Shown here: positions 1 through 63,314 of the stretch, one piece after another
How the letters are laid out: each line of letters starts with the position of its first letter
Numbering within the stretch: position 1 is the first letter of the stretch
Assembly (NCBI GenBank): GCA_000091205.1
Contig: AP006496.2
DNA: 64,000 nt
Reading direction: 5' to 3' (one strand)
Origin: Cyanidioschyzon merolae
Lineage: Eukaryota
Position numbers and translations under genes: made by a program
The notes under the pieces: generated by a model
Told to the model about the DNA's origin: nothing
Databases searched by the model: none
The model's input: only the letters and a program-made list of their open reading frames with translations

Positions 1-51
1 ATCGGGCGCAGGCAAGATGGTCGCTTATGCCTGGACGAGGCTCTGCGAAGG

Positions 52-1164: not shown

Positions 1165-1169
1165 AACAT

Positions 1170-4066: not shown

Positions 4067-5237
4067 CACGCGTTTTACGTCTTCCACTATGAAGCGGGCC
4101 TCGTGCAACTGTAGCTGAAGTTCGCAGCGGCGTAGTGCACGAGACATCCGCGCTGAATCTTCGCCATGACGATTTCTGATGACAAAACGTTCACATTGAC
4201 CATGGATCGCAGGGTGCGAGATGGATATTGGCATTCTGGAAAACGTTCATCATGCTGGATCCTACCTCCGATATCCATTACTTAAACTTCTTCTCGAATT
4301 TACTGGTCGCTTCACACGATCCATCGAGCGCCGAGTGCCTGTTTTGAGCTCCAGCTAAAGCGCCCAAACCGCCAATGCTGAAGCAGCACGGAGACAGAAC
4401 AGCTTTGCCATGCTACAGAGGGCATCGGCTCGAGAAGTGTTTCATCCGACACGGGGTCGAGATTCATTATCATTCTGGGAGCCTGCAAGCTGTGCTGATA
4501 GATCTACTGCCTGCGGCAGCGGGAAGCGATTTACAAGGAGTCCAGTGCGACCGATGCGACGCCCAAACGCACCCTACCTGCCCCTTATCCAAGAATAAAA
4601 TACGTTGCGGACGAGCAGCTCAAGACGCTCCACTGCACCTGCCACCGAGGGTAGCATGAAGCACCAGTCCGGCAGACTCAGCCGGCTCGCGGGACTTTCC
4701 GACTAGAATGTAAAAGTTCGACAATATGGAAACCTATTCCCCGTTCAACGTTTATCCTAGAGGGGAACGAAATTGTTATCTTGGCGCTAGTTAGTGGTCA
4801 GTTTCTGTTCTTTGTTCTATAGAGCGCAGTCGATATGCGTACATACAAATCTGGCATGCATGAGACACGAGGCGCATCTCGCCGTTGAAAGGAAACACGA
4901 TCCTTACCACTAGTTGACTTGTTGCTCTATTGGGCATGTTGCATTTGCGTTGAAGTCGTAGCAAAGAAAGTTTTCAGTTCAATCGTATTTCAAACCGCAA
5001 GCAAGCATATTCTAGTGTTTTTCGGTGTTTATAACAGAAGTGTTCGAAGCGGGTTCGTTTTCAAAAAAAAAGAAAAGTTATCGAAATGGAAAGGGAGGAC
5101 CCTGGAGGGCCAGTATCGCTGGTTGGCGGAAGAAACCAAAAGCATGACGGAGCAAAGAGGTACAAGAGAAGACGAGGAAGCATAAGGGGGAGACCCGACG
5201 TTAATGGCTGCACGAAAGACGACACCACGACAAGAAG

Positions 5238-7200
5238 TTGGTGAAAGCCTGTCTTCTGAGACATATCAAGAGCCCGTACTACCAAAAGTTGCAAAAGGCT
5301 GTCAGAAAGCCTGTCAAGTCGTACTCCACGAGTGTGGGTGACGTTTCTTTAAGACTGATGCGTATGGCGAGAGATCTGTATCGCGAATTGCTGCACATGG
5401 AAAGATTCGGGTTCCGTAAGAGTTTTTCAACAGGATCTTCACCAGCTACCTGATGGCTGGAACAGGGAAAACGTCTTGGAGAGACGAGCGAGTGCACGTC
5501 CTCCAGGAAAACTTCGCGGAGTACCGCTTCAACGGTACGTCATACAAGGATGACTCGCATATTTACGAATACGGGGTGATGAAGTACCTCACGAACCTGA
5601 AGAACCACATGATCGTGCGCCTCGAACGCTTCATGGTACGCTCTTTCTTTGCACTCTACCCGGGACTGTCTCGCAAAGGGATATGGGCCATCATCCACGG
5701 TATCACGAAAGATCGTCATCATGAACAGTAGATAGAATTCATCGACAAGAAGAAATCACACAGGAGAAAGAATCAGGGTTATGTAATATGTGTGGCTATT
5801 CAAGAGCACCGTTCGGTCCTGGAGCTTGTCAACCCACAGTGGGAGTATCAGATATGAAAAAAGATGAAGAAAGATGTCATCTCCTCATCCTGCGCTATGT
5901 CGTGTTTTTGAATCGAGAACTCGAACGCAAGGCAGAGATGGATCAGGATATGGAAGAAAATGAAGCGTCGGTGGAACGGAATGCTATGCCTTTGAAGAAG
6001 ATCTTCTATGTCGTTCCGCTATGCAACACCAAGTCACATTTTGTGACGATCGACTCCAGAATCTTTTACGGCGTCATGAAGGAGATCCGCTCGGAGTTCG
6101 ATGTAAGCAGGTAGGAGTTCACTGGCAAAAACTGGGAGACGTACTGGAAGAATACCTTCCATTTCAAACGTCTCAAAACGAGCAAGCAAGGGCTATTCAC
6201 GGAGATCACCGAAACCGATGGAGTATCCATTTGCGCACACTATAGTCGCTTGAAGGCGGATCGTCCTATTGTGTTTTCGGCTTCGCCCTCGCTGAAGCAT
6301 GAAGATGAGAGGGAAGCAGGCCATAAGACGAAGGAGATGCAAGAGAACGACTCCCTGGTCAGCGCAGATCCTGGGAACACGAATATCATAACCATCGCGG
6401 CACGCAAGTGTCGGGAAGATGGTATCGACGGCAACTTACGTCACAAAGACATGCGTCTTTTGAAGTTCTCAAGAGCGAGATACTACCGAGAATCGGGAAT
6501 AATGAATTGGAGGAGGAAAAGTGAGAAATGGAATGCAGGAGTGAGGGAGCAACTGGAAGCGATCAGCCAGGTGACTAGCCATGGGGCGGACTTCAAAGCT
6601 TACCTAGAGTTCATAGAAACTCAAGCTGCTCATTACGAGGAGCTGCGGAAAGAGTACACAAAGCCCCCGCGGGCTCGTCTGCTTATGAACTTGTACTGTG
6701 GGTAGCAGCGTGCATTTGCCAAACTTTTCAATCAGATGAGCACCCTCAAGGAGGTCAAGAGTCAAAGACTCGTAGTAGCTTATGGAGCACGGCGCTGGAG
6801 GCCCAACAGAAGAGCATACCAGCTCTATCAACGAGAGCGTACAAGGAGTGCGCCATTCGTTTCGTCACGGTACCGATAGATGAGTTTCGAACGACCTATG
6901 TGCACCACGAGCTGGGGTGCCTGCTCCAGAGGATCGAGATGCAGTGAAGGCAGCGGAGCCCTGAGGATATAGAAAAGTACGGAGAGCTCACAGAGAAGGA
7001 TGTGGAGTAGAGAGCACGAGTTCGAGGACGACTTGCCCCAGAGAGTACAACCAGCGGCGGCAATAAACGCATGGATTTTGTGAAGCTTGAATTGAACACC
7101 TCCCTCAATGGCAGACGATGTGTGGTATTGAAGACGAGACCCGCCGAGCTGACGCGATCCAACTTTGTGGGCAGCCTGTCAGGTTCGAACCGTACAAGGG
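5238..7200 (+). pseudogene. TnpB/Fanzor-like RuvC nuclease pseudogene (copy A)
   Basis: Segments align with copy B and with ISDra2 TnpB landmarks. 'KCREDGIDGNL' matches RuvC-I 'GVDVGI'; 'SRARYYRES' matches 'PKYYRST'. In-frame TAG at 6112-6114 where copy B has AAG. A 1-nt deletion near 5790 changes frame. The RuvC-III motif is degraded to 'NTSLNGRRC'. Confidence 0.55.
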
Positions 7201-7315
7201 AAAGCCAATGCCGATGGCAAGGCGCCGGCCAAAATAGGCGGGAGGCGTCTGCAGGTGGTTGTGTATATATAGACTCTCTCGTCGGTATGTATTCGCCATG
7301 ACGATGAGAATCAAC
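7170..7315 (+). other. conserved non-coding 3' tail of Fanzor/TnpB-like element A (candidate omegaRNA/fRNA scaffold region)
   Basis: Nucleotide conservation with the tails of the other five copies continues past the stop codons. Shared blocks: 'GAGCTGACGCGATCCAACTTTGT', 'GGGAGGCGTCTGC.GGTGG'. Confidence 0.3.
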
Positions 7316-12100: not shown

Positions 12101-12280
12101 AGCGATGGCTGCATATAGTCCTTCCAGGATCTTCCTCCAATCTATAGGAAACATTCCCTTTGTTGGACACAGGCGAGAAACACAGATAAAAGAAAAAGGG
12201 TCTGATCATACACGCATACCGGAACTCATTCGTCTAGATACACCAATGCAAGCACCAGAGAACGCCATCTACTTCTTCTA

Positions 12281-27121: not shown

Positions 27122-27539
27122 AAAAATAAACGCGTATCTCTGCGCAGCTCAGAGAAACTCCAACGGTGTCACCGCTTGCAGCAGCGAATCGAGGAGAGTT
27201 TTCTCGGAATGAACTGCGAACGTGCACCGGGTCGCGACGGTGCTCAGCTGGAAGTCGCCGCCGCCGCCGCCGCCGTGCTGCACATCTGAATGGATTGACG
27301 GGCGATACAGGATGTTGTTGTGGTACAGTCTTTCATCTCCATTGTGTTCCATCCCCGGGGTTCTTGTTATCAAATGCTTTTCGCAGTTTATAGCAGATTC
27401 GGCACAAGTGCGTTCATTTAAAAGAAGTACAAATTCCAAAGGAGCGGTACGGACATGGAAGTCTAGGATCCTGGAGGGTCGATGTCGGCGCCTGCTGGAA
27501 AAAGCACGGAATACAATGCCGAGCTCAGAGGACCAAGAG

Positions 27540-29555
27540 AAGATGAAGAGGCAAAAGCAGGAGGTCCGACGTCAACAGCAATTCGAAAGGCTAGACTGTG
27601 AAGAGATTGTAGTGGAAGCCAGTCTTCATCGACATATCAATGATCCGCACAAGCGAAATATGCAAGAGGCCATCAGAAACCGTATCGCGTCGTACTCTAC
27701 GAGTGTTTGTATCGCTTCTCCAGGAATAATCCGTTTGGTGAGGGAGATGGATCACGACGTGACGGAGATCAAAACAGTCGAGGTTTCGGGGGAATTTTTC
27801 GACAGGACCTTTATTCGTTACCTGATGGTTGGCACAGGGGAAATGTCGAGGAGAAATGAGCGAGTGCAAGCCCCGCACGAAAATCATGCTGAATAACGCT
27901 TCAACGGTACTAGATATAGGGACACTGGCGAATCTACGAATACGGCGTGATGGACAACATCACGAACCTGAAGAGCCATATGACCGTGAACCTCAAACGC
28001 TTCATGATACGCTCCATCTTTGCGTTCTTCCCTGGCCTGTCTCGCAAGCGGACATGGGCCATCATCGATGTCAGCATGAACGATCGTCGGAACGAAGAGG
28101 AGATCGAAATTGTCGGTAAGAAGACGCCACGCAAGAGAAAGAATGAAGCTTCTGTAATCCGCGCGACTATTCATGAGCACCGTGCGGTCTTGGGTCTTGT
28201 AAATCCAACAGAAAAGGTAACAGATACAAAAAAGACGCTATCCCCTCATCCTGCGCTGTTTCGTCCTCCTGAACCGAGAGCTCGAACGCAAGCCCGATAT
28301 GGAGCAGCGTGCGGAAGAAAAAGCAGAGTCGGTGGAACGGAAGGTTTCCCTACTTGGGAAGCGCTTCGGCGTCGTTCTGTTGTGCAACATAAAGTCATGT
28401 TTCATGAGTATCGATTCCAGCGTCCTTTACGGTATTATGAGGGATATGTGTCCGGAGTTCTTTATCAGCAACAAGGAGTTTACAGGTCAAAACCGGGAAA
28501 CTTATTGGAGAAATAGATTCGATTCAAGCGTTTCAACACGAGCAAGAAAAGGGTACGCACGGGGCGATCGAAACCGATGTATTAGCCATGCGTGTGCACT
28601 ATCAGCGCTTAACGGCAGATTGTCCAGTTCCGTCGTCGGCTTCGCCCTCGGCGAAGCACAAAAAGAAGAAGGCGGGCCCTGGAACGTATAATCCCCCGGA
28701 GAACAACTTTGTCGTCGGCGTGGGCCCGGAGAACAAGGATATCATGAGCATCGCTGTGTCCAAGTGTGGGGAGGATGGTATCGACGGCAACTTATGCCAA
28801 AAAGACATGCATCTTTTAAAGCTATCGAGAGCGAAATATTACAGAGATTCTGGGGTATTTAATGCGAGGAAACTAATTGAGATATGGAACTCAGGAGTAA
28901 AGGAGCATCTGGAAGCGATCAGCAATGTAACGCTCCGCGGAGTGTACTTTCGAGTTTTTCCGGAATTCATGGAAACCCAAGCTGCTCATTACGAGGAGCT
29001 GCGGAAAGAGTACACAAAGCCGCGTTGGGCTCGTCAGCGTATGAACCTGTACAGACTGAAGCAGCACGCACTCGCCGACTTCCTTAATCTGTTGACCGCC
29101 CTCAAGGAGGACAAGAGTCAAAGGCTTTTATTGGCACACGGAGCAGGGAACTGGGCGTCCAAAAAAGGGAGCATACGAGCTCTATCGGCACGAGCGGACA
29201 TGGAGTGCGCACTGCGTTTTGTCACAATATCGATACATGAGTTCCGAATAGCGTACGTGCTCGATGGGCTGGAGTGTACACTTCAGAAGGTCGATACGGA
29301 CAGAAGCCAGCCGAGCGTTTCGGAGACAGAAAAGTCCGGAGAGCGGACAGAAGAGCAAATGGAACGGAGGGCACGAGTTCGGGGAATCCTTGCATATTTG
29401 AGTACAGCCAGCGGCAATGCTGGAAAGAGTCGGTGAATCGAGACTTCAACGCCGCCACCAATATCAGGAAATGTGCGGTGCTGGAGAAGAGACCCCAGGA
29501 GCTGACGCGATCCAACTTTGTCGTGCAGCCTATCAGGGTCGAAGTGTACAAGTAG
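27540..29555 (+). pseudogene. TnpB/Fanzor-like RuvC nuclease pseudogene (copy B)
   Basis: Landmarks versus ISDra2 TnpB: 'LKRFMIRSIF' ~ 'ARFVYNHFL'. 'KCGEDGIDGNL' = RuvC-I. 'AKYYRDS' ~ 'PKYYRST'. 'LYRLKQHALADFLNLLTAL' ~ '[22 protein letters not shown]'. 'AHGAGNW' ~ 'SDAGWG'. 'CIFEYSQRQC' is the second zinc-finger Cys pair. 'NRDFNAATNIRKC' ~ RuvC-III 'DRDENAALNIRR'. The protein is split over all three frames by indels (a 10-nt deletion near 28235, a frame change near 28580). Confidence 0.6.
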
Positions 29556-29660
29556 CTGAAGACGATAGCAGCGGGCCAGTCAAAATAGGCCGTAAGGCGC
29601 CTGCGCGTTGGTATGAATTTATCCAACACGGCCGAGAGAAAGTTTTCGTTTCACTGAGCG
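29525..29660 (+). other. conserved non-coding 3' tail of element B (candidate omegaRNA/fRNA scaffold region)
   Basis: Conserved with the other tails beyond the stop at 29554-29556, ending in '...gagagaaagttttcgtttcactg' (compare copy E '...gtgaaacgttttcgtt'). Confidence 0.3.
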
Positions 29661-37988: not shown

Positions 37989-39419
37989 GCGCCCACTAGT
38001 CCAGACAGTTTCCAGTTTAGGAGCACCTCAGTGCCGTTGAACGCTGCGGCGTTCAGGCCTGCTGGTATGAGCGGGTACAGAACCAACGATCGTTTTCAGA
38101 GACGTTCTGGCTCGTTGGCTGATCGAATGATTCTTCCAATTTTCCGTTCGTTCAGTGAAGCAGCGCTTTTGATAGTTCATAGCAGCCAATCCTGATCAAC
38201 GTTGAAAGACTTGATGCGCTTTCTTTGTAAGTGCCTCGGAGATGATGTTACATAAAGTAAGAGGACGTTCGTAGCGGTGGATTATATACTGGGTGCAATG
38301 GGTTCTGGAACACCTGCCCAAGCACGCCCTTTTGAATCGTTTTCTGCTAGATATTCAACACAAAGAATGTTTTTGTGGATTGCGGAAAGGAGACGGAAAG
38401 ACTTTGAGATGACGGCTAGCTTGCGAAAATGCCGAAACTTCTACAAGTCTTTCATTCTTCGATTTGCACTCGGATGAGCCGCTCTTCGTGCAGTCCATAT
38501 CGTGAAGCTCGAGCATCCAGAGTAGAACTTATAAAAATGCTTGTGGGCGACGGCCTTCTCGATAACCGATTCAACTTCATACGTGCTCTGAGAAAGACTA
38601 CCAAAAAGGCCACCGTATTCGAAGAGTCCATACCGTTAACAAGCACGGTGATGAAGCGGCAGAGATCGACGAAGGAAGAAAGGGCGCCTCTATGAAAAGC
38701 CATTGCGCGTTGACCGGTACGCGATCCACTTCGGACTACAACGCGGACGCTTTATAGTCTTTGAACTCAATTCTGTTTCACAAGTGTTGCGTTGTATAGC
38801 AGCAGGTCGGAATCACGATGGAATGCACTGTGTAGATCGTAGACGGATCGCTTGTAGTATATATTCTTTAATGAACTTTGCAAGGAGGACTGCATTTTTT
38901 CCTCATTTCAGTACTAACACAGTACTCAGATAGTTGAGAGACACTGAAAGAACCAAGAACATGCGTCCCTCGCCAAAAACCGATATTCTCTAAGAATGAT
39001 TGCCGGTTGTCGTGGTAAACGACCCATTGCACACCTTCCGGGAAGGAAAAGCGACGACAGTAGCCGCCACAGGCATCTCCGTTTGTCAACAGCTCGTTCA
39101 TATTGTCCAGAAAACACTGGGATACAGTCGTAAAGAAGGTCATAGATCATTCACGGACATCTTCCACCGCAATCGCAATTACGGAATCACTGGAACGTCG
39201 CGATCGGAATGAAGTACAGGGACGTCGGCTTTCTCGTTTTAGTTGATGTGACTTGCTTCGAAGGAGACGATCGGAGCCCATCTGGGTATTCGCGGAGCAA
39301 ATAGCGCGTTGTATATCCGATCGAACTCCAAGAGAACCATGACATCATCTGTAACAGCTGCGGTGGATACATTTGGCGACATTAGTTTCGCTCGTCGAGA
39401 TGGCTCATAAAACAGCACC

Positions 39420-39926
39420 CATGACATGGAATCATCAAATACTTTTTCCACGACACCTGGCAATGTCCTTCCATTGGACAACGTGGCATTTCACCATTCC
39501 CCTCGAGTTCGAGTATTTGCCGATTCTATTCGGGTAGAATCCTCTCCTCGCCGACGATCGAGAGAAGAAGAAGAGGTGAGATAAACCAGAAAAAGTGTGT
39601 GCCTGAAGGGACGATGACGAGACTGTAATGGCACAGAGGGCACAATTTCGAGGACTCCTCGCATTGATCAGTTCAACCAGCGCCAATGCACGTAATGAGT
39701 TCATGGACCGAGACACCAACGCCGCCATCAATATCAGACGATGTTTGGTGCTGAAGACGAGACCCAAGGAGCTGACGCGATCCAAAATCCCAGGGGCAGC
39801 CTCCCAGGCTCGAAGTATGCCCGTATAAAAACTGAAACCGATAGTAGTCGTTCAGTCGGGAAAGCCCGGGAAGCGTCTGCGAGTGGGTAGATATGTATCC
39901 TCCATGGTTGTGAAACGTTTTCGTTA
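39420..39926 (+). mobile_element. Fanzor/TnpB-like element, short internal-deletion copy E
   Basis: 5' block remnant ('aatcctctcctcgccgacgatcgagagaagaagaagaggtgagata') joined at 'gggacgatgacgagactgtaatggcacagag' directly to the RuvC-III segment. ORF 39628-39828 reads '...DRDTNAAINIRRCLVLKTRPKELTRSKI', the best-preserved RuvC-III motif (ISDra2 TnpB 'DRDENAALNIRR'). The tail runs to '...gggtagatatgtatcctccatggttgtgaaacgttttcgtt'. Confidence 0.6.
39790..39926 (+). ncRNA. candidate omegaRNA/fRNA scaffold region (3' tail of copy E); speculative
   Basis: Non-coding after the stop at 39829, yet conserved with the other five tails: 'ctcgaagt.tgc', 'ctgaaaccgatagtag', 'gggaagcgtctgcgagtgggtagatatgtatcctccatgg'. 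Confidence 0.25.
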
Positions 39927-42900
39927 AGCTACACATGTAGACGCCAGGGGACCTGATTCGTGGAAAAGGGTACACCTGCATATGGGAACACAAAGAGAGG
40001 TCAACCGCAGTTGCTAAAGAAGAGACAAGCGAGAATGACGAAGACATCCGCCCTAGCAACGATTCAGTTGCTTGCTCGCGTACAAGTCGCCATAAAAGAC
40101 AGGATCGCACGGCTCCTCATCTTTCGTACAAGCGCCCTTCGCGGCTGCTCCGCTCCATATTCCTCTGGCCTGTTCTTGAACAACTTCGATTTCTATCCCT
40201 GAAAAAATCAAAGAGTATGCAGCTGAGGTTGGCGTTGAGCTGCTCTTTGTGCCCCCGAAATCTACCTGGTTCAATCCAGCCGAAGGCGTTCCTCTGCTGT
40301 AAAGAGTCATTTTTACCCGCACACACCAGTTCTCGAGTTGTATGCATCCGTCACTCCGTTCTTTGCCGAGTTGCTCCCTATTTACACCAACCCTTAACTG
40401 CCCTGTTTCGTTTCCGCTCATGTGCGAGAAAGAGCGAGCAAGGTGTACTTCGGTCCGTGGTCATGACGCGTAAGGTGACGCAAATGTACTTGAGAAGCAC
40501 TAGATACGAAGACAGCAAATGCCAGCTCCGGTGCCGTGGTCTACCCACTGCGTCTAAAACCCAGAGCAGAAACGGATATGAGGTACTGCGCCCGACTGCA
40601 TTCGATTCCTTCAAGTAGAGAAGGAGGCGGAGAAGTATAAGAAGAAGGAACAACGGGACAATGAAGGGAAAGACTCTTCTTAAAAGCCGACGATGAAGGA
40701 CGACAAGGAGAGACTGTCGAGGCGGAATGCCCGGTCTGAAGTCATTTTGTCATTGCCCCTGTACTAAAACATGTCAACAGAGAGAATCTTCCGAAACGTA
40801 GCACGGAGGGCCCCATTTCAGATGGGGTAACTTCTTACCCGAGCAGGACTTGTTCATCTACCCTTGCGTTGGCGCACTTCCTCAGGCAAATGTTGATCGG
40901 AGCTCTCTGTGCAAGGCTGCAAGCCGTCCATATTCCACCGGAATACGTTGATCAGTCCTTTGTCTGAGAACTGATGCTCGTGACAGAAGACGGGACACAG
41001 CCTGATTATGAATTCAAAGATTTGCATACACGCTTTCCGGAAGAACCAGACGCGATGCCGCGCAACCCAGGCGATGGGATGATCTGCAGCGACAGTGCCA
41101 AACGAGTACCAAGCCATCCTCAATAACCGTGCACGGGGTCAATGTAGAGCGCTTCATGAAAATCGCCTTGTGGGCGTTAGGGCTTCATCATAGAGGACCA
41201 GAAAAGTGGAGACGAATGGAAGGGATTCTTGGGGTTTCAATCAAGGCGAATGACGAGTTGGTTGCGGCGGAGAGCGAGCTGGTACCGGGATCGGGAGAAA
41301 TGCCGCAGTGTGAGCGAGCGTCGCTGTAGCTCGTCGGAACTCATTGTGTGGTCGTCGGCATCGAACTGACAGAGGTCGTGTCCAAAGGATGTTTGAAACG
41401 CAATGCACGACTTGCTTGCATCTCGCACAATTACTTTCTCCTGAACAGAGCCCTCCGGAGCGCAGCAAACTCCATTCTCGAATCTGAACGTAATCCCCTC
41501 CTCAGGCGCGTATTAGAACTGGTTTCGACGTGCAACATCAAGGCTCGTAGAATCACCGAAGACTCGTTCGTGCTATGTGGATTGCTCAGTGAGCCACAGC
41601 TGGTCTCTGCGAGCAATCATTGAACATTCAGAGCACTCCACAAAGTGCGTTGGCGGAGCTCGTTCAAGGATCCTCGTTTTCAGGGAGGAAATGGAAATCC
41701 GTTGACAGGGAATACGGTGACTCAAGGCATATCAGTGTGCACGCAGCTGTAAAGCCGCGGCCTGTGCCGAGTAACGACGCTCGTTCTCAGCCGTTCAAAA
41801 TCGACTAAAAGAAACGCTCACGAATTCGCGTGGATCTGTTTTTTTTGAGAATATCGTGGTTATTGCCTGTCCCTGAATCAGCACGACGCAGCCGAAGATC
41901 TGAACGGAAAGCGGGCACTGCTTCTCAATTTTCCCACGGATCGGCATTCTCGAGAGTTGGGCCTGATGGACTCCACGAGGCATCTCAACAGGTAGAATGG
42001 CGGCGTCGGGACCCACCTCGACGCATTGAGCACGGTATCGAGCAGACGAGCATACGTTGTCGGCTTCATTCAGAGAATCGATCAGCGTCCGAATCGCTTA
42101 TGTGGAGCATCTTTTGCGGGAGGATATGAGACAGCGCCGGGGCATCCACCGGTCACCGTTGTACGAAGGCAGGAGGCTTGCACTCACCAACTTGTTCAAT
42201 GAATCTGAAAAGACGAAGAAGCAGCGTCGTTTTGAGGTAGCCTACGGCGCTGGCCGTGCCGCACCGTGCAACGGCTGCACTCCATCTCATTCGACCAGAG
42301 TGTGCAACGAGTGCAGGAATGGATTCTACACGATTCCCATCGATAACTTCAGGTCTGCGAATACAAATCACGAGCACGGGTGCGCGCTGATACTGGCAAA
42401 GAAGTGCGTAAAACAGAACCAGATGGGTTACATGGTGCACGGTAAGCTGACCGATCGTCGGATGGTGAGGCAATCGAAGTTGAGAGGCATGTTATAATGC
42501 GGTTCCACCAGCAACTAGGCGTGCACACAGTTTTCGCATCGTGACACGAACGCCTCCAATAATATCCGAAAACGGCTCGTGATTCCGGAGCGTTTATCGA
42601 CTGTGTTACAAGCGAACCTTTGAGGCTTTCAATTTGTACTCAGTATGGGTGTTACACTGAGACAATGAAAGCCTGCGATGACAACAATCAATGGTCAGGA
42701 TAGAGGACGCTTGGTTCCCGCCTAAACCAATGCACTGGTATGGTATGATCAGCAATCCAGACGAGTGGTGCTTTCGCCAAGCAGCGAACCAGCCCAGGCA
42801 CTTGTTTCATTCTTATCGTGTATGATCGATGCATGCAAATGGGATTGCCTAGAAGCGCAAACGCCACTGGCAGCCAGAAGAGAGACTACCATGCGTCTCT

Positions 42901-46819: not shown

Positions 46820-47699
46820 ACAAGATTCGGAGGATGGGCGGCTGTTTTCGTCATGTGCGGCAGCTGCACGGCGTTCGCGTCAACTGCAGTTCAGCGCTTC
46901 GTTCATCATGGCGGTGCTGGACGCCAGCCCGCAAAACCAAATGCGCAACAGCACATTTGCTTATAGAGCGAGTACAGTGCTCGCTGCAGACGCGTCATGC
47001 AGTCGCTGCAGCTTCGATTGCAGCGCATGCATCGGACGTGATGAGCCGAGGTTTTTGTAAACGTGCCAGAAAACTTGATATTATCTACACAACGGTGCGT
47101 GAACAGTTCACGATTTTCAAAAAATGATCACATGACTTTGCGCTCCTCTCTGCTTTCATGATGATGTGTTTACGGCGCATTTTTTGAGGTGCGACACTCG
47201 AAGAACGCATATCCATTTGCTGCTGTGTTACAAGCTGGAAACCACCTACGACAGCACAACGCGCTGCAGTCAGTCGCAGCGCAGCTTGGAAGAGGTACAG
47301 AACAGCTGCGTCGGCCGCTTGCCAGTGACGCGGCACCTTCTCTCAAGTAGTTGGTGCCGCCACGCATTGCAGTTCGTGTCTAGATGCTTCGAGAGTTGTC
47401 GCTGCGACCACCTAAGATACTCAACGCCCCGAGATGATGTCGAATTCCCGGTCTCGCGGTTTCGGGTTACAAGTTCACCGTCGCATATACTAAGTCTGCC
47501 TCCAAGCATTCCTAGTCCCGGGAATGGACCAAAATTTTAGGAAAAGACAGGTCCGAGAATGACGGAGTGGAGTACCTGTTGCAACGGAACAGCAATCGCT
47601 TCGCTTCGTATTTTGCGGGCAATTTGCTTGCCGGGAGAGTCATCGGATTCGATATCTTGATCCTATCGTCTTTCAACGCAATTGTGCTCAATCCTCAGG

Positions 47700-48230
47700 T
47701 ACGTGCCATCGAATGCTTTTTTCGCGGTTGTAGCAGACGCGTTCATGTTTAGAAATAAAAAATCCAAGGGAAAGGTACGGACGTGGTTGTCGGGGATCCC
47801 GGAGGGCCGGCATCGTCGGATCCGACGAAAAAACGAAAAAATACTCTCCTCGTCGACCATCGAGCGAAGAAGCGCAAGTGAAGAAGCAGCAGCAGAAGGG
47901 TTGTACGCGAGAACAGGTGCTTGCCCTACGGGACGATGACGAGACTGCTATGGCACAGAGCGCACGGGTTCTAGGTATTCATGCAAAGGTGCGTTCCGCC
48001 AGCGGCAATGCACGTAAGCAGTTTGTCAAACGACACCTCAACGCCGCCATCAATATCAGACGATGGATGGTGCTGAAGACGAGACACGAGGAGCTGATGC
48101 GATCCAACACTTTGTGGAGCAGTCTCTTGTACTCGAAGTGTACACGGTGGAGCTGAAGCCGTCAACCCGTGGCCGGTCAAAAACTGATGGGAGGCTTCTT
48201 CGCATGGGTATTAGTGTACCAGCTCGAGCC
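47700..48230 (+). mobile_element. Fanzor/TnpB-like element, short internal-deletion copy C
   Basis: 5' block 'aatgcttttttcgcggttgtagcagacgcgttcatgtttagaaataaaaaatccaagggaaaggtacggacgtgg...ggatcccggagggccggcatcg', then junction 'gggacgatgacgagactgctatggcacagag', then RuvC-III ('KRHLNAAINIRRWMVLKTRHEELMRSN', ORF 47878-48156) and a partial tail. Confidence 0.6.
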
Positions 48231-52502: not shown

Positions 52503-53642
52503 GTGACGCACATGCAGCGACGACTCCGTAGCCTGCATGCGTGCGCGCTGGTACCCGAGCGTGCCGTAGGGAGCGGCGCTCGCGATGCCTCTCTGGTGCT
52601 CCACACTCCAGTTGCGTGTGAGCGACGTTTGCTTGGATTCCAAGGCGACTTAAAGAGAGCCTCTGGACGGTTTACTCTTTTAGTTGTCTGCTGGTCGCTC
52701 GTTTTTCTCGTGTGTATGCGGCGGGCGTTTCACGAGAGACTCCGTCGCTCCAGGGTTCTCTCTCTGGTGGTGCTCGTTTTGTTTGCAGCATCAGCTCTGA
52801 GCCTTCGCCTTCGGTTCAAGAGGCTATCGCCAGCAGGTTGGAAGGCCGAAATCCATGATCTGCAAAAATGTCCAGAAGGCGGACTATGTCGGCTTCGTAT
52901 CTATGCGATAGCAGTGAAGAACCGGCGAAAAACTATTGAGCGAGCGTTACAGCGAATTCGTGCGAACTACACCATCATTGACGCGGTCTTGACGGACTCT
53001 GAGTTGGTATCATGGTACCACTGGCATATCGTGCCGAGTGAACAGGTACACCTCCACGAGCAAGGTGCTGGCGGATACGTTGCTGGTCCGTGGCAAACTG
53101 TGGTGGCATGTTTTTTGTCGCACCTCAAAGCGTTGAAAACGCTCATAGATGACCCCGATGCAGAGGCAGCTATGATTCTCGAGGACGATGTCGTATTCTT
53201 GCGCGACGTCGAATTGCTTTGGCAGCGAATCAGCGACGCATTCAAACTGCTCAACGACGCTGATGTGGTTCGGCTCTCGTATCTCGATCACGCCAAGCAT
53301 ATCAGCCCGCGAACCCAGGCCGAGTTCCAGCTTAATGGCACTTGGTCGGGTGCCCAAGCGTACATGATATCGAAACAATTCGCGAAATTAGCCGTAGATA
53401 CCGTCGACCATCCCGTGCGTTTTCTTCGAAATCGTTTTCTAAGCATCACGAGCGAACTTGTCTTGAACGCTGATTTTGCGGACACCAAGGTCACCGTCCC
53501 AGTGCATCCGCGCTGCAGGGTATTCGTTTTGCAACCACCAATCGCGATAGAGCGTGTCGATGTGAAAAGCACCATTGGGAATTCTCCGCATTGGCAGGAG
53601 TTTGCTATGTATGGATTCGAGAATTACGCATTGGACATCTGA
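52503..53642 (+). CDS. glycosyltransferase family 25 (Lic2B/COLGALT-like), type II membrane protein
   Basis: TM anchor 'FTLLVVCWSLVFLVCM', then 'RLRIYAIAVKNRRKTIERALQRIRANYTIIDAV' and 'VVACFLSHLKALKTLIDDPDAEAAMILEDDVVFLRD' (GT25 hallmark 'ILEDD'). Confidence 0.7.
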   Translation: MTHMQRRLRSLHACALVPERAVGSGARDASLVLHTPVACERRLLGFQGDLKRASGRFTLLVVCWSLVFLVCMRRAFHERLRRSRVLSLVVLVLFAASALSLRLRFKRLSPAGWKAEIHDLQKCPEGGLCRLRIYAIAVKNRRKTIERALQRIRANYTIIDAVLTDSELVSWYHWHIVPSEQVHLHEQGAGGYVAGPWQTVVACFLSHLKALKTLIDDPDAEAAMILEDDVVFLRDVELLWQRISDAFKLLNDADVVRLSYLDHAKHISPRTQAEFQLNGTWSGAQAYMISKQFAKLAVDTVDHPVRFLRNRFLSITSELVLNADFADTKVTVPVHPRCRVFVLQPPIAIERVDVKSTIGNSPHWQEFAMYGFENYALDI

Positions 53643-54479
53643 GCGGAGCGATGTGCGGACGTTCGCGATCGCACCGTTTTCGAAAATAAGAGGATGATTA
53701 AGGGGCATCTTGCAAGCAGTGACACTGTTCCGTACGCATTTCATAGTTGGTTCCGACGCTAGCTGTACCCTGAAATGACATTCCGGTAACGCTGGTATTG
53801 GTTAATGCCCATTGCAGCGGCGTTACGCGAACGAATGCCATTCAGCTTTCGTCGGTGTCCAGTCACTGCAGATTGGCGCATGGCCTGTTCCCGTCGACCA
53901 TGCAGTCGAAGAAACTGGTGCCCAAGATCCCCGCTCGACTGTGTCGGCCGTCGAGCTGCCCGCCTGCCGAGACTCATACGCGAAGTTCGGCTCGACGGAG
54001 CTGCCTTTGTAATCCTGGAGCAGGCTGGATTGTTTTCTGGGGGCGTTTGCATGGCTAGACTAAATTCTAATGGTGAGCAATCCGGGAATCTGACAAGGAA
54101 AAGTCGACCCCCGTCACCCCGGTGCGGCTGGATACATTCAGATGCCCTCGAGACTGCTCAGCGCTGACACGGATCCATCCATCCATCCATTCGCGTCTTT
54201 CCCAGAACGGTTCAAGGGGCGTTGCGACGCTTTCGCTCAGGGCCAGGACCAGGCACCAGTCCAGCCTCATGAAACGTGATGCAGAGCAGCACCATTCGCC
54301 ACATGGTAGCGCTTGCGGATAGCTGCCGTTTGCACTGGCCTAGCTTGCTGCCGTTCGTGCAAGCGCGTTGCAGGCTCCACGGGGAGTTGTACGTCTGGCT
54401 TTGGCAGAGCGCCGAAGGCATCTTCGCTGTGCAGAACAAGCCGAAAACGTTGCCGTGCAGTGCGCTGCGTCGTATTCGC

Positions 54480-55110
54480 ATTCTAGACAAGATCAGCAAA
54501 ACGAACAATGTTTCACGGTCATGGAAGATAAATATATCCAACCATCCGCAGACGCTTCCCAGCCTTTCCCAACCGGCAGCATGCTATTGGTTTTAGTTTC
54601 TCTCTGCACACATCGAGCCTTTGAGGTAGCCCTACGAAGTTTGATTGCGTCAGCGCCGCGGGTCCCGTCTTCAACACCAAGCATCTTCTGGTATGGGTCG
54701 CGGGATTGAAGTCCCACTTCATGATCTCCTTGCGTTTATTGCCTCTGGTTGAGCTCACCGAGGGAGAGCGTGCTCGAGCTCGCACCCTCTGTGCCACCAA
54801 AGTCTCCTCATCATCCCGTTGAGTAAACACCTTTTCTCGCTTATCTCACATCCTCTTCTTCTTCTTCTCGTCATTTGCGCTTCTTCACTTGATGGTCGGC
54901 TAGAAGAGGATTTGATCGATTCTTTTTTTCGGTGAGCCGGCGATGACGGCCCTCCGGGATCCCCGCCTTCCATGTCCATACCCTTCGCTTGGATTTTTTA
55001 TTTCTTGAAAATGAACACATTCCTTTGGAGGCTTCGGCGAGAACCATTCCGGAGGGGTAAGCGCTTGCGGAAGAGAAACGATATGTGCCACGGTATGGCG
55101 CCATGTGCGG
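54480..55110 (-). mobile_element. Fanzor/TnpB-like element, short copy D (minus orientation), degenerate
   Basis: Minus-strand ORFs 54871-55104 ('RNKKSKRRVWTWKAGIPEGRHRRL', the 5' block) and 54519-54830 ('WDFNPATHTRRCLVLKTGPAALTQSNFVG', a degraded RuvC-III). The tail ends near 54495 ('...ccatgaccgtgaaacattgttcgtt' on the minus strand). Confidence 0.55.
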
Positions 55111-56030
55111 AACGCCTCAGCGATTCGCCCAGTGGACCGATTATTACGTTTCACGGTAGAACGCACTCCTTGGATGAAGCTGAACCTCGTAGAGTACGCA
55201 GGAATGAAAAGCAGCTCTACTCCCCGGATAGAATCGGCAACAGCTCGAACGCAAGAGGAATGATCAAATACCACGCTGTCCGATAGGAGGTCGTCGCCAG
55301 ACGTCAGGGAGGAGTCTCCAATGGTTCGGCAAAGTTGACGGTGCTGTTGTATGACGCTCTTCCACTTGAGAAACCGAGGTCGCCGAATGACTCCACCACG
55401 CCAAGAATAGATGGTGATGTCATCCTTCTCTTTGGGTTCGATTTCACATGCAACGGGCTCCCGGCTGCGCGACAACCCAGGTGCACTCCGACCGTTTCGT
55501 CCGAAGCAAGTCTCGTCAACTGAAACAGAAAAACCGATGTGCCTGTGTCTCATTCCGATCCCAAAGTTCCAAGAATGTTGTAGCAGGTACGATGTCGGTG
55601 GAAGATGGCGGTGCTTGAACTTGGACTCTTTCCTTGAGACTGTATCGCGGTGTTTTCAGGGCCAAAATGAACAAGCTGTTGAGAGAAAGAGACGCCCCTG
55701 GAGACTGCCATCGTCGCTTTTTGCTCTTCGTAATGCGTCCAAGAGGTCGTCTTCTACCATTGACGGCAAACAGCGTCTGATTATACCTGTTTTTGGCACA
55801 GAGCGCACATAGGCTTCTTTCTGTCGCTGTGGCTTAATCATGTGAGGACTGCGATATGACCGACCTGAGAGAGGAATGCTGTCCTCCTTGCGCTTTTCAT
55901 TAAAGAACACATCCTATGTGCAATGCGTCTACGATCTACAGCATACATTGCATCGTTATTTCGATCTCCTGCTGCACACCACTTCGGGGGTGAAATCATA
56001 CAGAGCTGAAAGACTCCAAAAGGAAAGATT
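54985..56030. repeat. dispersed repeat family 2, copy 1 (~95% identical over ~780 bp to 61935-62700; weaker similarity to ~62970)
   Basis: Near-identical runs, e.g. 'cattcctttggaggcttcggcgagaaccattccggaggggtaagcgcttgcggaagagaaacgatatgtgccac'. The longest ORFs (minus 54900-55553, 217 aa; plus 55411-55812) have no recognisable domain. Abuts the 5' block of copy D. Confidence 0.8.
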
Positions 56031-56224
56031 CGCAGCGAGCATCCAGGTCGCACGAGTCGCTTCCAGCAGGCACCTCGGGATAGAACACAAGCGTCCAGTG
56101 GCGGTGAGCCGTGTTCGCAGTCGAGGCACTTCGAGAAGGCGCTTTTCTTTCCAGAAAACGTTGACGGGCTTGGTGTGTGCGAGCGTGCGTGCGTACCACC
56201 TAGGCAGCGAGTCCCAGAGCGTTC

Positions 56225-56965
56225 ATGAGCGTTCAAGCGCAACTTGTTGGCGGGGAGTTTTGGGTCACTGACCCAGTGAGCGCACGACTGTGTTGGCAGT
56301 CGCTCATGGGGTTCGGGAAAGGCAACTTGAGCCGTAGTCGACCTGTGTACGGGGAGCTAGTCCGGGGTGCGGTCGATCACGTCCACTTGGGACGAGCGCT
56401 GCGCAGCCTGGTGCGTGCCGGGCACTTTGCAGCACGGACTGACAAGGAGGACGTGGAGCACCTGCACCTAGCTCCATTCGAAGCAGCCTACCTCGCTTTT
56501 GACGAACAATTTCTGACCGTGAAAGGTTTCGAGAACACCCAGTCACTCTGGACGTACTTCGTATCCCTACCGAAAGAGCACTTGCGACAGTATGCAGTTT
56601 ATCGAGCATATCGGCACGCAGGCTGGGCACCGCATTCCGGATGCAAGTATGGCGCGGACTTTGTACTTTACCGGTTCCGAGCGTCAGAAGGTCGTCATTC
56701 GCACGCACCGTACGCGGTTCTCGTTCGGAGTGCAAACGAGCGCATCCATCAGCGTTGGATTGCCGTCCAGAATCAGCTGAGGCTCACCAAACAAGTGGCT
56801 AAGCGCCTTGTCTACGTGGAGGTGTCCATGAGCACAGCGATGGAGCATCTCCAGCATCGCGAACGCTGGCTCCAGACCGTGTGTCTGCATGAGGTTCTCG
56901 TCGATCGCTGGACGCCATCCATTCGCACTCGTTCGAAAGAGGCAAAACAGCGTGCCGCGAAGTAG
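56225..56965 (+). CDS. tRNA-splicing endonuclease catalytic subunit (Sen2/Sen34 family)
   Basis: 'AVYRAYRHAGWAPHSGCKYGADFVLYRFRASEGRHSHAPYAVLV' matches the tRNA-intron endonuclease catalytic domain (vY.dLr.rGy.v..G.KfG.DF.lY......HS.y.v.v). Upstream 'EAAYLAFDEQFLTV' fits the N-terminal domain. Confidence 0.8.
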   Translation: MSVQAQLVGGEFWVTDPVSARLCWQSLMGFGKGNLSRSRPVYGELVRGAVDHVHLGRALRSLVRAGHFAARTDKEDVEHLHLAPFEAAYLAFDEQFLTVKGFENTQSLWTYFVSLPKEHLRQYAVYRAYRHAGWAPHSGCKYGADFVLYRFRASEGRHSHAPYAVLVRSANERIHQRWIAVQNQLRLTKQVAKRLVYVEVSMSTAMEHLQHRERWLQTVCLHEVLVDRWTPSIRTRSKEAKQRAAK

Positions 56966-57537
56966 TCTGTGCGGCAAGCCTGCTGAAAGGCATCGTCCAG
57001 CGCAAGTCCAAAGGCGGCGCAACAGCAGCATCTATCTGCACAACGGGAACGCACACCAGAAGTGCGACGAGAACAAGTCACGGGTTTGCATCCTGGCTGC
57101 AGCGGGAGCACCTGGAACGCACTCATGACACACACTCTCTCACCGACAGGGGCACGAGAACAAGTCGCAAGTTTGCACCCTGGCTGCAGCGGGAGCTCCT
57201 ACAACGCACTCGTGACACGCTCTCACACCGACAAGGGCACGCGCCTCAGTTTTGCGTTCGTGCTGCTGGAAGTGGATTGACTGGTGCACGATGACTGTCG
57301 ACATCGGGGCCGTCGCTGGCTGTCTCTGAGCGGACTCGGCAGCAGTGCCTCGTGTAGTGTTACCAGTATCGAAGTGCAAGAGCGGAAACCTCCAAACCTG
57401 AAAAACATGCGCGACGCCCGAACAGCCGAATGCGTCATGCTGCGGACCCACTGGAGCACGCACCGGGTTAGAAACGCTGCCCTGTGCACGCGCTCGCAAG
57501 GTTGCACTGCAGTAAAACCTTCGATGCGCTTTGCGAG

Positions 57538-59271: not shown

Positions 59272-59334
59272 CGGAACCGTTACGCCTCACTGGGGCCACA
59301 CTCCCTCGACGGCCTTGCCAGACAGTGTCGGTGT

Positions 59335-59362
59335 CGGTAGCGGTAGCGGTAGCGGTAGCGGG
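59335..59362. repeat. (GGTAGC)4 microsatellite
   Basis: gtcggtagcggtagcggtagcggtagcgggtacg. Confidence 0.8.
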
Positions 59363-60129
59363 TACGCGAGTAGAAGCGAAAGCTTGGCCAGTGCGGCTGC
59401 AGCGCGCGCGCGCCCAAGCGCATACCTCGAGCGCGCAACACCAGTCGTGTTGCCTGCTGGAGTGCAGTCCGCGGATGGAGGCAGTGTTCCGGTGAGTCGG
59501 CAACGCTGCGGAGAGGCGAGGTACATTTCAGGTGAGTTGTGCTTCAGACACTAGGAGACGCTTGCGAAACGAGAACAGCGTTTGCTGGACGCTGGGGAAC
59601 GCGATCGAGGCGGTGAGCCTGCGGGTACCCGGCTTGCAGTAGACGCTAGACCAGTGCCAGGTGAAGATGGAACGCGAAACTATTCGGTCTCTTCCTGGTA
59701 TGAAGTTTTCTCCAAAGTTTTCGTTGGATATAATACGCCGAGATTCGACGTGGGAATGTAAATGGCTTTGGGATTTGTGAATGGTTTCAGGTTTCTCTGG
59801 TGTGTTTTCCAGAGTGACTCCAATGACGCTCTGCCGCTGGAACTCGTTCCATCACGGGAATCAAGAAGGTTCGCGATGCCCCCGAACAAGCACCCGGATC
59901 ACGACCAACACCCTGATCCATTGCACATGTGCAAGTCTCGACGCTTCTACTTTCGTTACGAGTCGCACGCTCAAATCACGTATTCTTGGGGGTTTCGACC
60001 TTCCTGTTTCAAGGCGATTCGCTGGTGCAGCATTGGGCGCTGCTGGTGTGGCGAGGCAAAACGATGAATGTCGCCTCGTGATGACTTGTTCACGAGCTCA
60101 TACGGAAAGAACGCGGAAGTTGTGACGTC

Positions 60130-60640
60130 AGATGATGAACTCTGATCGAAATATAAATCCTTGTTTCTTTCTTGCGGTCGACGAAATCGCACTCGACACT
60201 GGCAGCATGAAACTTATCACGGGACATGCTCCGAGAGGTTTCCTTCTATTCTGTTTGTATGCCAGAGCGTGCTGGACTCGGATTTCAGTCATCAGGGCGA
60301 TCGTTTCTTGCGGGGCGTATTTTACTGGTTTGCACAAAGGGAGCGTATACGGGTAGAATTTTTTCGGCTTCTTCAGCCTGGCTTTGCGTTCCATATCTGT
60401 TTCGTCATGGACAAGCTCACGTTATACAAAAATACCCATCGAATGGAACAGCGTGAGCGTGCAGCGAATAGCGTCCACCCCGGCGAACATTGCCCAGAGA
60501 AGGCCTGTGACCGCAGGGTACGGCATCGGGCGCGGAAACGGAGAAAGGGCATCGAGAGGAGCCCTCTGTTCCCGTTATCAGCATGTATCGAGCGATGAGG
60601 CAAGCGTTCACGTGCCACAGAGCTGTGCCCTGACCAGGAG
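60130..60640 (+). repeat. dispersed repeat family 3, copy 3
   Basis: Aligns in blocks with 33620-34120 and 14200-14610: '...gcgcggaaacggagaaagggcatcgagaggagcc...', '...gatgaggcaagcgttcacgtgccacagagc'. Confidence 0.6.
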
Positions 60641-61524: not shown

Positions 61525-61990
61525 ATACCATGGGGTCGATGGAATGAAACCGGTTTGCGACCATGGTTCATAAATGTATCTACCCACGCGCAGACACCTC
61601 CCAGCCTTTTTCGACCAGCCTCCTGCTATCGATTTCAGCTTTTCCGTGTACACCTCGAGCATCGGAGGCTGACCCACAAAGTTGGTTCATGCCAGCTCTG
61701 CGCGTCTCGTCTTCAGCACCGCACATCACCTGATATTGATCGCGGCATTGAAGTCTCGGCTCGCAAAATTCCTTGCTTTAATTGCGGCTGCGGGAACTCA
61801 CCAGTGTAAGGATTGCTAGAGCTCGTGCCCTCCGTGACATGTGCTGTTCTGGCAGCACACTGTACTTTACGATCGACAAAGCGCACTGCTGGCTTGTCTC
61901 CACCTAAACCGTCTGAAGTATGCGTCCGAGGTCGTCGCTTAATTTCTTGAAAACGAATACATTCCTTTAGAGGCTTCGGCGAGAACCATT
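61525..61990 (-). mobile_element. Fanzor/TnpB-like element, short copy F (minus orientation)
   Basis: The minus strand of 61690-61775 reads 'DFNAAINIR*CAVLKTRRAELA*TNFVG' (RuvC-III with in-frame stops). Tail: '...ggctgggaggtgtctgcgcgtgggtagatacatttatgaaccatggtcgc'. A 5' block remnant at 61935-61990 joins repeat family 2 copy 2. Confidence 0.55.
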
Positions 61991-62970
61991 CCGGAGGGGT
62001 AAGCGCTTGCGGAAGAGAAACGATATGTGCCACTGTATGGCGCCATGTGCGGAACGCTTCAGCGATTCGCCCAGTGGACCGATTATTACGTTTCACGGTA
62101 GAACGCACTCCTTGGATGAAGCTGAACCTCGTAGAGTACGCAGGAATGAAAAGCAGCTCTACTCCCCGGATAGAATCGGCAACAGCTCGAACGCAAGAGG
62201 AATGATCAAATACCACGCTGTCGGATAGGAGGTCGTCGCCAGACGTCAGGGAGGAGTCTCCAATGGTTCGGCAAAGTTGACGGTGCTGTTGTATGACGCT
62301 CTTCCACTTGAGAAACCGAGGTCGCCGAATGAATCCACCACGCCAAGAATAGATGGTGATGTCATCCTTCTCTCTGGGTTCGATTTCACATGCAACGGGC
62401 TCCCGGCTGCGCGACAACCCAGGTGCACTCCGACCGTTTCGTCCGAAGCAAGTCTCGTCAACTGAAACAGAAAAACCGATGTGCCTGTGCCTCATTCCGA
62501 TCCCAAAGTTCCAAGAATGTTGTAGCAGTTATGATGTCGGTGGAAGATGGCGGTGCTTGAACTTGGACTCTTTCCTTGAGACTGTATCGCGGTGTTTTCA
62601 GGGCCAAAATGAACAAGCTGTTGAGAGAAAGAGACGCCCCTGGAGACTGCCATCGTCGCTTTTTGCTCTTCGTAATGCGTCCAAAAGGTCGTTATCCACG
62701 AATCGCCGCAAGCATGCACACGGCATATCGGTTATTGACGCATCGTGCATCTACCTGATTCTCTCAGCGTACCTGAACCATCAAAGTCCTCTTGTATGAC
62801 TGACCTCAACGAGGAATACATTCCTCTTTGCACTATTCCATATATAATCTAGCCCATAGGCAGTTCGTCTAAGATCTATAGAATACATTGCATCGCGATG
62901 TCGATCACCTGCTGCACACCACATCTTGAGTGAAATCAAAGAGAGTCGAAAGACTACGACAGGAAAGCGA
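61935..62970. repeat. dispersed repeat family 2, copy 2
   Basis: See 54985-56030. Minus-strand ORF 61713-62495 (260 aa) is nearly identical to the ORF at 54900-55553. Confidence 0.8.
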
Positions 62971-63314
62971 TTCGCTGGTGCACGGATCGCCGCCGCGCCG
63001 CCGCCGCCGCCGCATCGCCGCCGCCGCGGAAACGCTCCTGCGCATACCAGTGGCAGTGCTAGTCGCACTCGTGGCATCCGAGGAGGCGCTACAGTGTGGC
63101 AAGTGCCACGGTTGCAGGTCCTTGGGCCTGTTGGAACAGTGCACGCTACGAGTCATGGTGTTGGACGGCGCGGGACACGCCCTAAGCTTGGCTTTTGTAG
63201 GAGGAATTCCGACCTCGAAGAGACGCGCGGCAGTGCGCCCGGGGTCCCGTCCTCGAGGGTCACCGCCCTTCTGGAGTAACTTCCCGTGCACTTGGCGATG
63301 GGGGAGCGCGCGGA

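Follow-up and report, generated by a model that had tools for sequence, protein, structure and literature searches.

Fanzor1-bearing transposons and the CMe-1A copies of the window

Fanzor1 proteins are RNA-guided, TnpB-like nucleases of eukaryotes, with a fold that comprises WED and REC domains and a split RuvC domain into which a zinc-finger/TNB domain is inserted. CMe-1A, a founding family of Fanzor1, exceeds in abundance every other DNA repeat reported for Cyanidioschyzon merolae. Its consensus is about 3169 bp long and encodes a 734-aa Fanzor1, and there are about 150 copies with about 80% identity to the consensus (Bao & Jurka 2013, Mobile DNA 4:12, PMC3627910). As published, CMe-1A has no TIRs and no transposase, its TSDs are undetermined, and it was treated as a non-autonomous element of 'classification unknown' (PMC3627910). 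Mariner elements that carry Fanzor1 (PUl-1, PUl-2 and PGv-1), and that have TIRs and TA duplications, were described in the same study (Bao & Jurka 2013, PMC3627910), and an association between Fanzor1c and Mariner/Tc1 has been reported (Jiang et al. 2023, PMC10530073).

The DNA analyzed here (the window) is a stretch of 64,000 nt from C. merolae (contig AP006496.2). It is gene-dense, with about 55% G+C, and contains ORFs identical to three proteins of C. merolae strain 10D, a Sen2-like tRNA-splicing endonuclease (BAM81323.1), a TPR protein (BAM81324.1) and proteasome alpha-1 (BAM81308.1); Rfam and tRNA scans of positions 53500-64000 were empty. A preliminary description of this stretch reported a repeat, family 2, that adjoins two short Fanzor-like copies, D and F. 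When compared with the CMe-1A consensus, taken from the supplementary file of PMC3627910, the Fanzor part of the window was found to belong to the CMe-1A family, which is from the same organism. Copy A is 80.5% identical to consensus positions 2-3021 and copy B 77.7% identical to positions 785-3020, while parts of copies E, D and F map to the 5' block and the 3' end. The published identity of about 80% to the consensus fits the pairwise identity of about 70% among the window copies.

The features of the copies are listed below, with Fanzor1 used in the sense supported by the fold comparison, and transposase in the sense of homology, both described in later sections:

4178..7290, plus strand: copy A, a full-length decayed CMe-1A with its left end at about 4995, no transposase, and a Fanzor1 pseudogene (Fanzor region 5031-7181)
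27323..29650, plus strand: copy B, with the left end, a deleted transposase, a Fanzor1 pseudogene (Fanzor region 27390-29561) and the right end
38752..39925, plus strand: copy C, with the left end, transposase pseudogene (residues 1-232 at 38823-39537), a deletion and a Fanzor tail (39559-39925), about 70% identical to D and F throughout
39897..42665, plus strand: copy G, with transposase residues ~134-304 (39897-40421), followed by a full-length decayed Fanzor1 (40749-42665)
47664..48210, plus strand: copy E, short, with the left end, Fanzor 5' block and tail, carrying both deletions
54483..54870, minus strand: 3' tail of copy D, with the last ~60 codons of the Fanzor1 pseudogene (RuvC-III region) and the 3' non-coding right end
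54871..55019, minus strand: Fanzor 5' block of copy D, with the post-transposase spacer, an ATG at 54979 and ~35-60 N-terminal codons, joined by a deletion to the tail
55020..55950, minus strand: DDE_3 transposase pseudogene of copy D, from tblastn with intact transposases and aligned motifs
55951..56033, minus strand: left end (LE) of copy D, '..AGTCTTTCAGCTCTGTATGATTTCAC..', corresponding to CMe-1A consensus position ~785
61535..61938, minus strand: longer 3' tail of copy F with the right end, starting at the equivalent of A 6907 (CMe-1A consensus 2753-3088)
61939..62890, minus strand: remnant of ~20 nt of the Fanzor 5' block of copy F, and its DDE_3 transposase pseudogene (tblastn)
62891..62975, minus strand: left end of copy F, the LE common to six copies

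The six CMe-1A-like copies (A-F) have one left end in common, '(T)AGTCTTTCA.CTC.ATT.TGTTTCA'. Copies A, B and E keep the sequence from this left end to about the start of the transposase and then jump to the Fanzor 5' block, which indicates that the transposase gene has been deleted from them. The transposase is kept in D, F and C, where most of Fanzor has been lost, in each case through a different internal deletion. Copy D retains about 130 nt of the Fanzor 5' block, followed by the last ~60 codons, and in copy C the transposase ends ~220 nt short and the Fanzor 5' block is missing altogether. Copy C is a third copy of family 2 (38755-39537, plus strand), with a Fanzor tail attached, and does not appear in the preliminary description.

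The 5' block of D aligns with positions 849-966 of the CMe-1A consensus (z = 18) and also with copies A, B and E. Its tail is 69-73% identical to the tails of A, B, C, E and F, and is matched by intact Fanzor1 relatives at 54612-54806 (tblastn); the RuvC-III region reads KWDFNPATHTRRCLVLKT, compared with NRDxNAAxNIRRC in intact copies. The deletion form seen in D recurs in copies E and C and in P0017, P0020, P0036 and P0047, and the breakpoint of F was also read in P0024, P0033, P0046 and P0051. A repeat search and inspection by eye found no convincing TIRs, TSDs or TA duplications at the ends of D, F and C, where only a motif of about 9 nt (GTTTCAC/GTGAAAC) recurs near both ends and other pairs are at chance level. 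A suspected resemblance of the region that precedes A, B and E to the 3' part of family 2 was rejected, as the local alignment was no better than that of shuffled sequences; the actual similarity of the family-2 copies to A, B and E lies at the opposite end, in the shared left end.

Family 2 is by homology a decayed DDE_3 transposase gene

Family 2 had been taken for a separate repeat family whose ORFs are without a recognizable domain, and neither view holds. The minus-strand ORF, which is 217 aa long in D and 260 aa in F, matches Pfam DDE_3 weakly (PF13358; E 0.04, 14 bits against a cut-off of 28.6). Since this direct match is below threshold, the assignment is made through intermediate relatives (transitive homology). 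HMMER returned 48 relatives of family 2 from 1.84 billion representative proteins, and those of full length (P0037, P0040, P0050, P0056 and P0063, about 300 aa) match DDE_3 with E values of 1e-22 to 1e-27 (79-94 bits) and align to family 2 over residues 1-264. The relatives have N-terminal HTH domains that match HTH_Tnp_Tc3_2, HTH_23 and HTH_33, and this region is seen in D and F by tblastn, but is frameshifted. Intact transposases cover D with residues 1-289 (55948-55086) and F with residues 1-283 (62888-62028), the transposase Met being at 55948-55950 in D and about 62888 in F.

Motifs of D can be paired with those of the relatives (DETCFG with DETSFG, SDSVVFDHS with LLDNVAFHHS and FSFIQG with FNPIEG), and LLFIPAYSTRFSFIQG of family 2 stands opposite LLYVPPYSPWFNPIEG of the relatives. 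The catalytic triad of D and F reads D, D, Q, with a spacing of 35, whereas the intact relatives in contigs L011-L013 are DD34E, and the change of the catalytic E to Q indicates that family 2 is a dead descendant and not an active member. The N-terminal third of the transposase is interrupted by frameshifts and stop codons in both copies, with at least two frameshifts in D. Judged by homology, family 2 is a frameshifted pseudogene of a Tc1/mariner-type (DDE_3) transposase of about 300 aa, on the minus strand in D and F, and its extent is that of an essentially full-length transposase pseudogene plus about 80 nt of upstream end sequence. The plus-strand ORFs of family 2 are antisense to this gene and have no domain match. 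No intact C. merolae copy of the transposase was recovered from the window, the protein libraries or one metagenome collection.

The adjoining gene is supported as Fanzor1

Searches of Pfam, NCBIfam and PDB sequences gave no match for the Fanzor-like copies of the window or for an intact relative, so that the Fanzor assignment needed an intact relative together with a fold search. Homologues of the protein encoded by contig L012 were collected (44, of which 39 were aligned), and the fold test was done on P0181, an intact relative about 35% identical to copies A and B. With its AlphaFold2 model (pLDDT 86.5, pTM 0.83), the top seven PDB matches found by Foldseek were all Fanzor1 (9cf1, 9cez, 8gkh and 9cer among them), followed by Cas12 proteins. 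The Fanzor1 matches were to Parasitella PpFz, Spizellomyces SpuFz and Guillardia GtFz, with E values of 1e-14 to 1e-17 and TM scores of 0.5-0.7. This comparison of a predicted fold supports the neighbor of family 2 being a Fanzor1, and so bears out the 'Fanzor-like' label of the preliminary description.

Another homologue, P0211, passes Pfam PF07282 (Cas12f1-like TNB domain), and copies A and B, like the relatives, still show the motifs DPGNTN, VDEFRTT..C and NRDFNAAxNI. The conserved Fanzor1 motif is D ... [TS][TS]-x-x-C4 zinc finger ... RD (Bao & Jurka 2013, PMC3627910). Copies A and B have this motif, with the zinc-finger cysteines partly lost in the window pseudogenes. An alignment of seven tails gave no covariation support for an omega-RNA fold (RNAalifold, covariation term +2.0, three compensatory pairs).

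The junction between family 2 and Fanzor is a native gene boundary

Immediately downstream of family 2, in the same orientation, comes the Fanzor1 gene. That D and F meet the Fanzor 5' block at the same point had been noticed earlier and is confirmed here: the two copies have a common sequence up to 'GTTC(A/G)TTTTCAAGAAAT' and then part, because the different internal deletion of F begins there. The shared sequence can also be read to 'TTCAAGAAAT' before the divergence.

The same arrangement was found in metagenome contigs L011, L012 and L013, where a DDE_3 gene of 298-306 aa is followed, after a gap of 190-225 nt, by a gene of 577-702 aa on the same strand. This second gene is without Pfam matches and is about 35% identical to window copies A and B over the full length of those copies. 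In contrast to the window copies, with their lack of convincing TIRs and TSDs, contig L013 (3384 bp) carries imperfect inverted repeats of 34 nt, and TA is present at each of its ends. Within the window, the order is repeated in copy G, where a transposase remnant precedes a full-length decayed Fanzor1. Thirteen pseudo-ORFs of other copies, about 45-50% identical, extend past the C-terminus of the transposase, and all 13 run on into Fanzor sequence, either in the manner of D (into the 5' block) or at the exact breakpoint of F (into the tail). Every family-2 copy of the window that reaches its own 3' end adjoins Fanzor sequence. Given the gene order in L011-L013 and copy G, together with the 13 pseudo-ORFs, the constant junction of family 2 with Fanzor is the native boundary between two genes of one element, and not an insertion site.

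A near-identical tract in copies D and F

Copy D occupies 54483-56033 and copy F, in the same orientation and 6.9 kb away, 61535-62975. They had been described as about 95% identical over some 780 bp, and a BLASTN comparison of D 54997-56033 with F 61939-62975 gives 89.8% identity over 1039 nt, an average that conceals a step. In a three-way alignment with sliding identity, the near-identity is confined to one segment of 759 bp, in which 743 positions (97.9%) are the same. The similarity reported earlier is thus real, but it does not have the extent of family 2: the patch takes up some three quarters of family 2, and its start is internal to the repeat. The remainder of family 2 (D 55760-56033) is 66.9% identical between the two copies (182/272), and the Fanzor-like tails are 69.4% identical (193/278), in agreement with the figure of about 70% given previously. 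The contrast between tract and surroundings is highly significant (Fisher p about 1e-54), and the edges are sharp:

54997..55755, unstranded: putative gene-conversion patch in D, sharp-edged, matching F 61939-62697 with 97.9% identity
61939..62697, unstranded: putative gene-conversion patch in F, partner of D 54997-55755

One edge coincides with the point where homology between D and F breaks, at the deletion breakpoint of F, and the other (D 55755) is within the transposase gene.

The preliminary description offered three explanations for this similarity, one being that family 2, or its core of 760 bp, is a separate and younger mobile element with a preference for the 5' ends of Fanzor. It draws on the 98% identity of the core in surroundings of about 70%, and on the adjoining Fanzor sequence at every window copy of family 2 that is complete at its 3' end. 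However, the core starts in the middle of the transposase frame, and copy C, which is about 70% identical to both D and F, runs collinearly across the 55755 edge at that same level on both sides, so the inner edge is not the end of an element. The order of transposase and then Fanzor is native to intact elements of unrelated metagenomes and to PUl-1, and the left end upstream of family 2 is the one that precedes Fanzor in A, B and E. Nor was a third locus with the core found in the protein libraries or the JGI metagenome contigs. In the latter, a 30-mer from the tract matched the D and F loci only, both on one contig of 116,875 bp, and in the HMMER scan of representative proteins the next relative of the family-2 protein beyond the D/F cluster was only 48% identical. 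A cluster of 33 members at 90% protein identity looked at first like a set of many genomic copies, but represents the D and F loci resequenced across samples: every member examined is of the D or the F type and comes from a contig that holds the orthologous D-F interval of another sample, 99.1-99.4% identical to the window. This census of copies covers the window, the protein libraries and one metagenome collection. On this evidence a younger element is very improbable.

A recent segmental (tandem) duplication of the 1.45-kb composite unit, or of a larger block, is slightly less probable again. Although D and F have the same orientation, a spacing of 6.94 kb and a shared composite order, the uniform identity over unit and flanks that such a duplication would leave was looked for and not found. 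Identity falls from 98% in the core to 67-69% on both sides, and the sequences beyond the element ends are unrelated. The two copies also have different Fanzor deletions, each of which is common to diverged copies elsewhere. Since D and F are different deletion forms, with only about 67-69% identity outside the tract, they are old and separate copies.

We give as little weight to the idea that a transposase-derived gene was domesticated and that purifying selection, rather than conversion, keeps the core similar. In its favor, D, F and every strain variant retain an open frame of 217-333 aa. Selection at the protein level, however, cannot produce a core in which all codon positions alike show 98% identity when copy C stands at 70%. 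In addition, Q replaces the catalytic E, a shifted frame and stop codons disrupt the N-terminal third, and the strain variants differ in amino acids and by an indel that alters the length of the ORF. Least likely of all is an artefact of assembly, in which a repeat was collapsed or wrongly joined. Within the core, the short-read contigs L001, L003 and L009 do pass from the flank of one copy to that of the other, but the same two-copy arrangement and identity profile are present on the independent 116,875-bp metagenome contig and recur in about ten other assemblies at 99% identity, and there are 14-16 fixed differences between D and F inside the core.

The third explanation, that gene conversion had homogenized one part of the repeat, is supported by the step in identity, the collinearity of copy C and the finding of the tract only at D and F. 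The tract is best explained by recent ectopic gene conversion (non-reciprocal recombination) between the neighboring paralogues D and F, a process that we infer from the sharp edges, the collinear copy C, the age and separateness of D and F, and the lack of any other locus with the tract. The pattern resembles ectopic gene conversion between dispersed repeats in having a sharply bounded near-identity inside old paralogues that lie close together on the same chromosome, and in having one tract edge at a break in homology. A tract of ~0.76 kb and a copy spacing of 6.9 kb are typical for ectopic gene conversion and in no way unusual.

The tract differs between D and F at about 6 sites in related strains (99.1-99.4% identical), compared with 16 in the window. 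At one site in the tract, both paralogues carry a strain-specific base, and this single site hints at ongoing exchange between D and F after the strains diverged. In metagenome contigs L001, L003 and L009, the flanks of one copy are connected via the tract to those of the other, in both reciprocal ways, for which path switching by the assembler is the likelier cause. As to what might have started the conversion, an active CMe-1 Fanzor1 could have made an RNA-guided double-strand break in or near one copy, which was then repaired from its neighbor. We consider this highly doubtful; if true, it would mean that a Fanzor1 nuclease drives concerted evolution (homing-like conversion) among the copies of its own transposon in a eukaryotic genome.

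Decay of a two-gene transposon and the placement of CMe-1A

The decay of a two-gene transposon, combined with a gene-conversion tract between D and F, very probably accounts for the whole of the observations. D and F would be two old, dead copies of one C. merolae DNA transposon with two genes, inserted separately. The parent element, of about 3.3 kb, would have consisted of the left end, a DD34E (DDE_3) transposase gene of about 300 aa, a short spacer, the Fanzor1 gene and the right end. Cut-and-paste transposons usually yield internally deleted copies that keep both ends and are mobilized in trans. One lineage would have lost the transposase, and is represented by the published CMe-1A consensus and by copies A, B and E, the last of which has lost most of Fanzor as well. 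Other lineages would have kept the transposase and lost most of Fanzor, with different breakpoints (D-type, F-type and C). As both the D-type and the F-type breakpoint turn up again in further diverged copies, the deletion forms themselves were probably mobilized, presumably in trans. The 759-bp stretch would be the result of recent conversion between these two neighboring paralogues.

The comparison with CMe-1A fits this scheme. The consensus is without a transposase, whereas D, F, C and G carry a DDE_3 pseudogene upstream of Fanzor, at a site that corresponds to the interval between the left end (~785-860) and the Fanzor start. The consensus passes from about position 785 almost straight to the Fanzor start, and so represents a transposase-deleted form. 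It also has about 785 bp of extra 5' sequence (the TE-N2_CMe part), which in the window is present only in copy A.

Compared with PUl-1, PUl-2 and PGv-1, the arrangement is the same: a Mariner-like transposase of about 300 aa, then Fanzor1, on the same strand of an element of 3.4-3.8 kb. Homology links the PUl-1 transposase with the intact family-2 relatives (E 1e-15 to 1e-21), and L013 resembles PUl-1 in its TIRs and terminal TA. The differences are that the window copies are pseudogenes with large deletions and without recognizable TIRs or TSDs, that the sequences have little identity with PUl-1 (27-34% in the catalytic domain), and that the spacing between the second D and the E is 34 in the family-2 relatives and 43 in PUl-1. 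With the relic transposase gene, the intact DD34E relatives with TIRs and TA, and the homology to the PUl-1 transposase, CMe-1A can now be classified among the Mariner/Tc1-borne Fanzor1 elements. The pairing of a transposase with Fanzor1 was already known; the descent of CMe-1A from it, and the survival of transposase relics in C. merolae, seem not to have been stated before.

The placement adds one more case to the known association of Fanzor1 with Mariner elements, and leaves the understanding of how Fanzor works unchanged. Its main value is that a puzzle is cleared, in that the supposed second repeat family is the transposase half of the same transposon. What the window records is ordinary transposon decay, and the gain is a modest one, in the annotation of repeats in a model red alga.

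Transposon Copies, Solo Remnants and Other Repeats

Besides the dispersed copies of the two-gene transposon (DDE_3 transposase plus Fanzor1), a nested cluster occupies 38750-42665, where copy C abuts copy G. Copy G has diverged too far from copies A and B to be detected by BLASTN, and is recognized at the protein level only. The components of the cluster are:

within 38750-42665, copy C: left end, transposase pseudogene and Fanzor tail
39897-40421, copy G: transposase remnant, upstream of its Fanzor1
40749-42665, copy G: Fanzor1, full-length but decayed, following the transposase remnant

Transposase remnants also occur alone, with no Fanzor sequence detected beside any of the three, and the third is overlapped by one member of a further, old repeat pair (~65% identity, in two blocks), the other member of which sits between copies D and F:

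11470-12172, minus strand: remnant of the same transposase as in D, F, C and G
14311-14463, plus strand: weak DDE_3 match (E about 1e-4)
33642-33906, plus strand: weak DDE_3 match (E about 1e-4)
33257-34218 and 59783-60741: old repeat pair

Three further repeats were found. The last lies within a gene, a dihydrolipoamide acetyltransferase-like ORF whose two lipoyl domains it represents, and is a domain duplication of the ordinary kind:

25336-25721: tandem repeat of a ~98-bp unit, in four copies with 63-81% identity
57054-57241: tandem repeat, two units of ~87 bp, 81% identical, just downstream of the Sen2-like gene
63397-63534 and 63856-63993: direct repeat, 73% identical

Element Ends and Intact Relatives

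The published consensus of the C. merolae Fanzor1 family CMe-1A carries an extra ~785 bp at its 5' end, which is present in copy A alone (4178-4960) and is said to be a separate repeat, TE-N2_CMe (Bao & Jurka 2013, PMC3627910). A fragment of this part lies inverted just past copy E:

48223-48416, minus strand: fragment of the ~785 bp 5' part

When reverse-complemented, the right end of C, D and F resembles the opening ~30 nt of the consensus; this likeness may be what is left of a terminal inverted repeat. Intact elements encoding a DD34E transposase and Fanzor1 are common in metagenomes (L011, L012 and L013 are among the examples), frequently on contigs 3.1-3.5 kb long that appear to be whole elements, and the G+C content of the contigs carrying them is 47-50%. 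L013 has imperfect terminal inverted repeats of 34 nt, with TA at each end. Many of the Fanzor1 relatives collected (proteins P0183-P0219) have a precomputed Pfam match, PF26935.

Contigs Joining the Flanks of Copies D and F

In three metagenome contigs (L001, L003 and L009), the 760-bp tract shared by D and F links D-side to F-side flanks, and both reciprocal configurations are present. These joins reflect either path switching by the assembler or real alleles produced by unequal crossover; if the latter, the Sen2-like and TPR genes would be deleted or duplicated.
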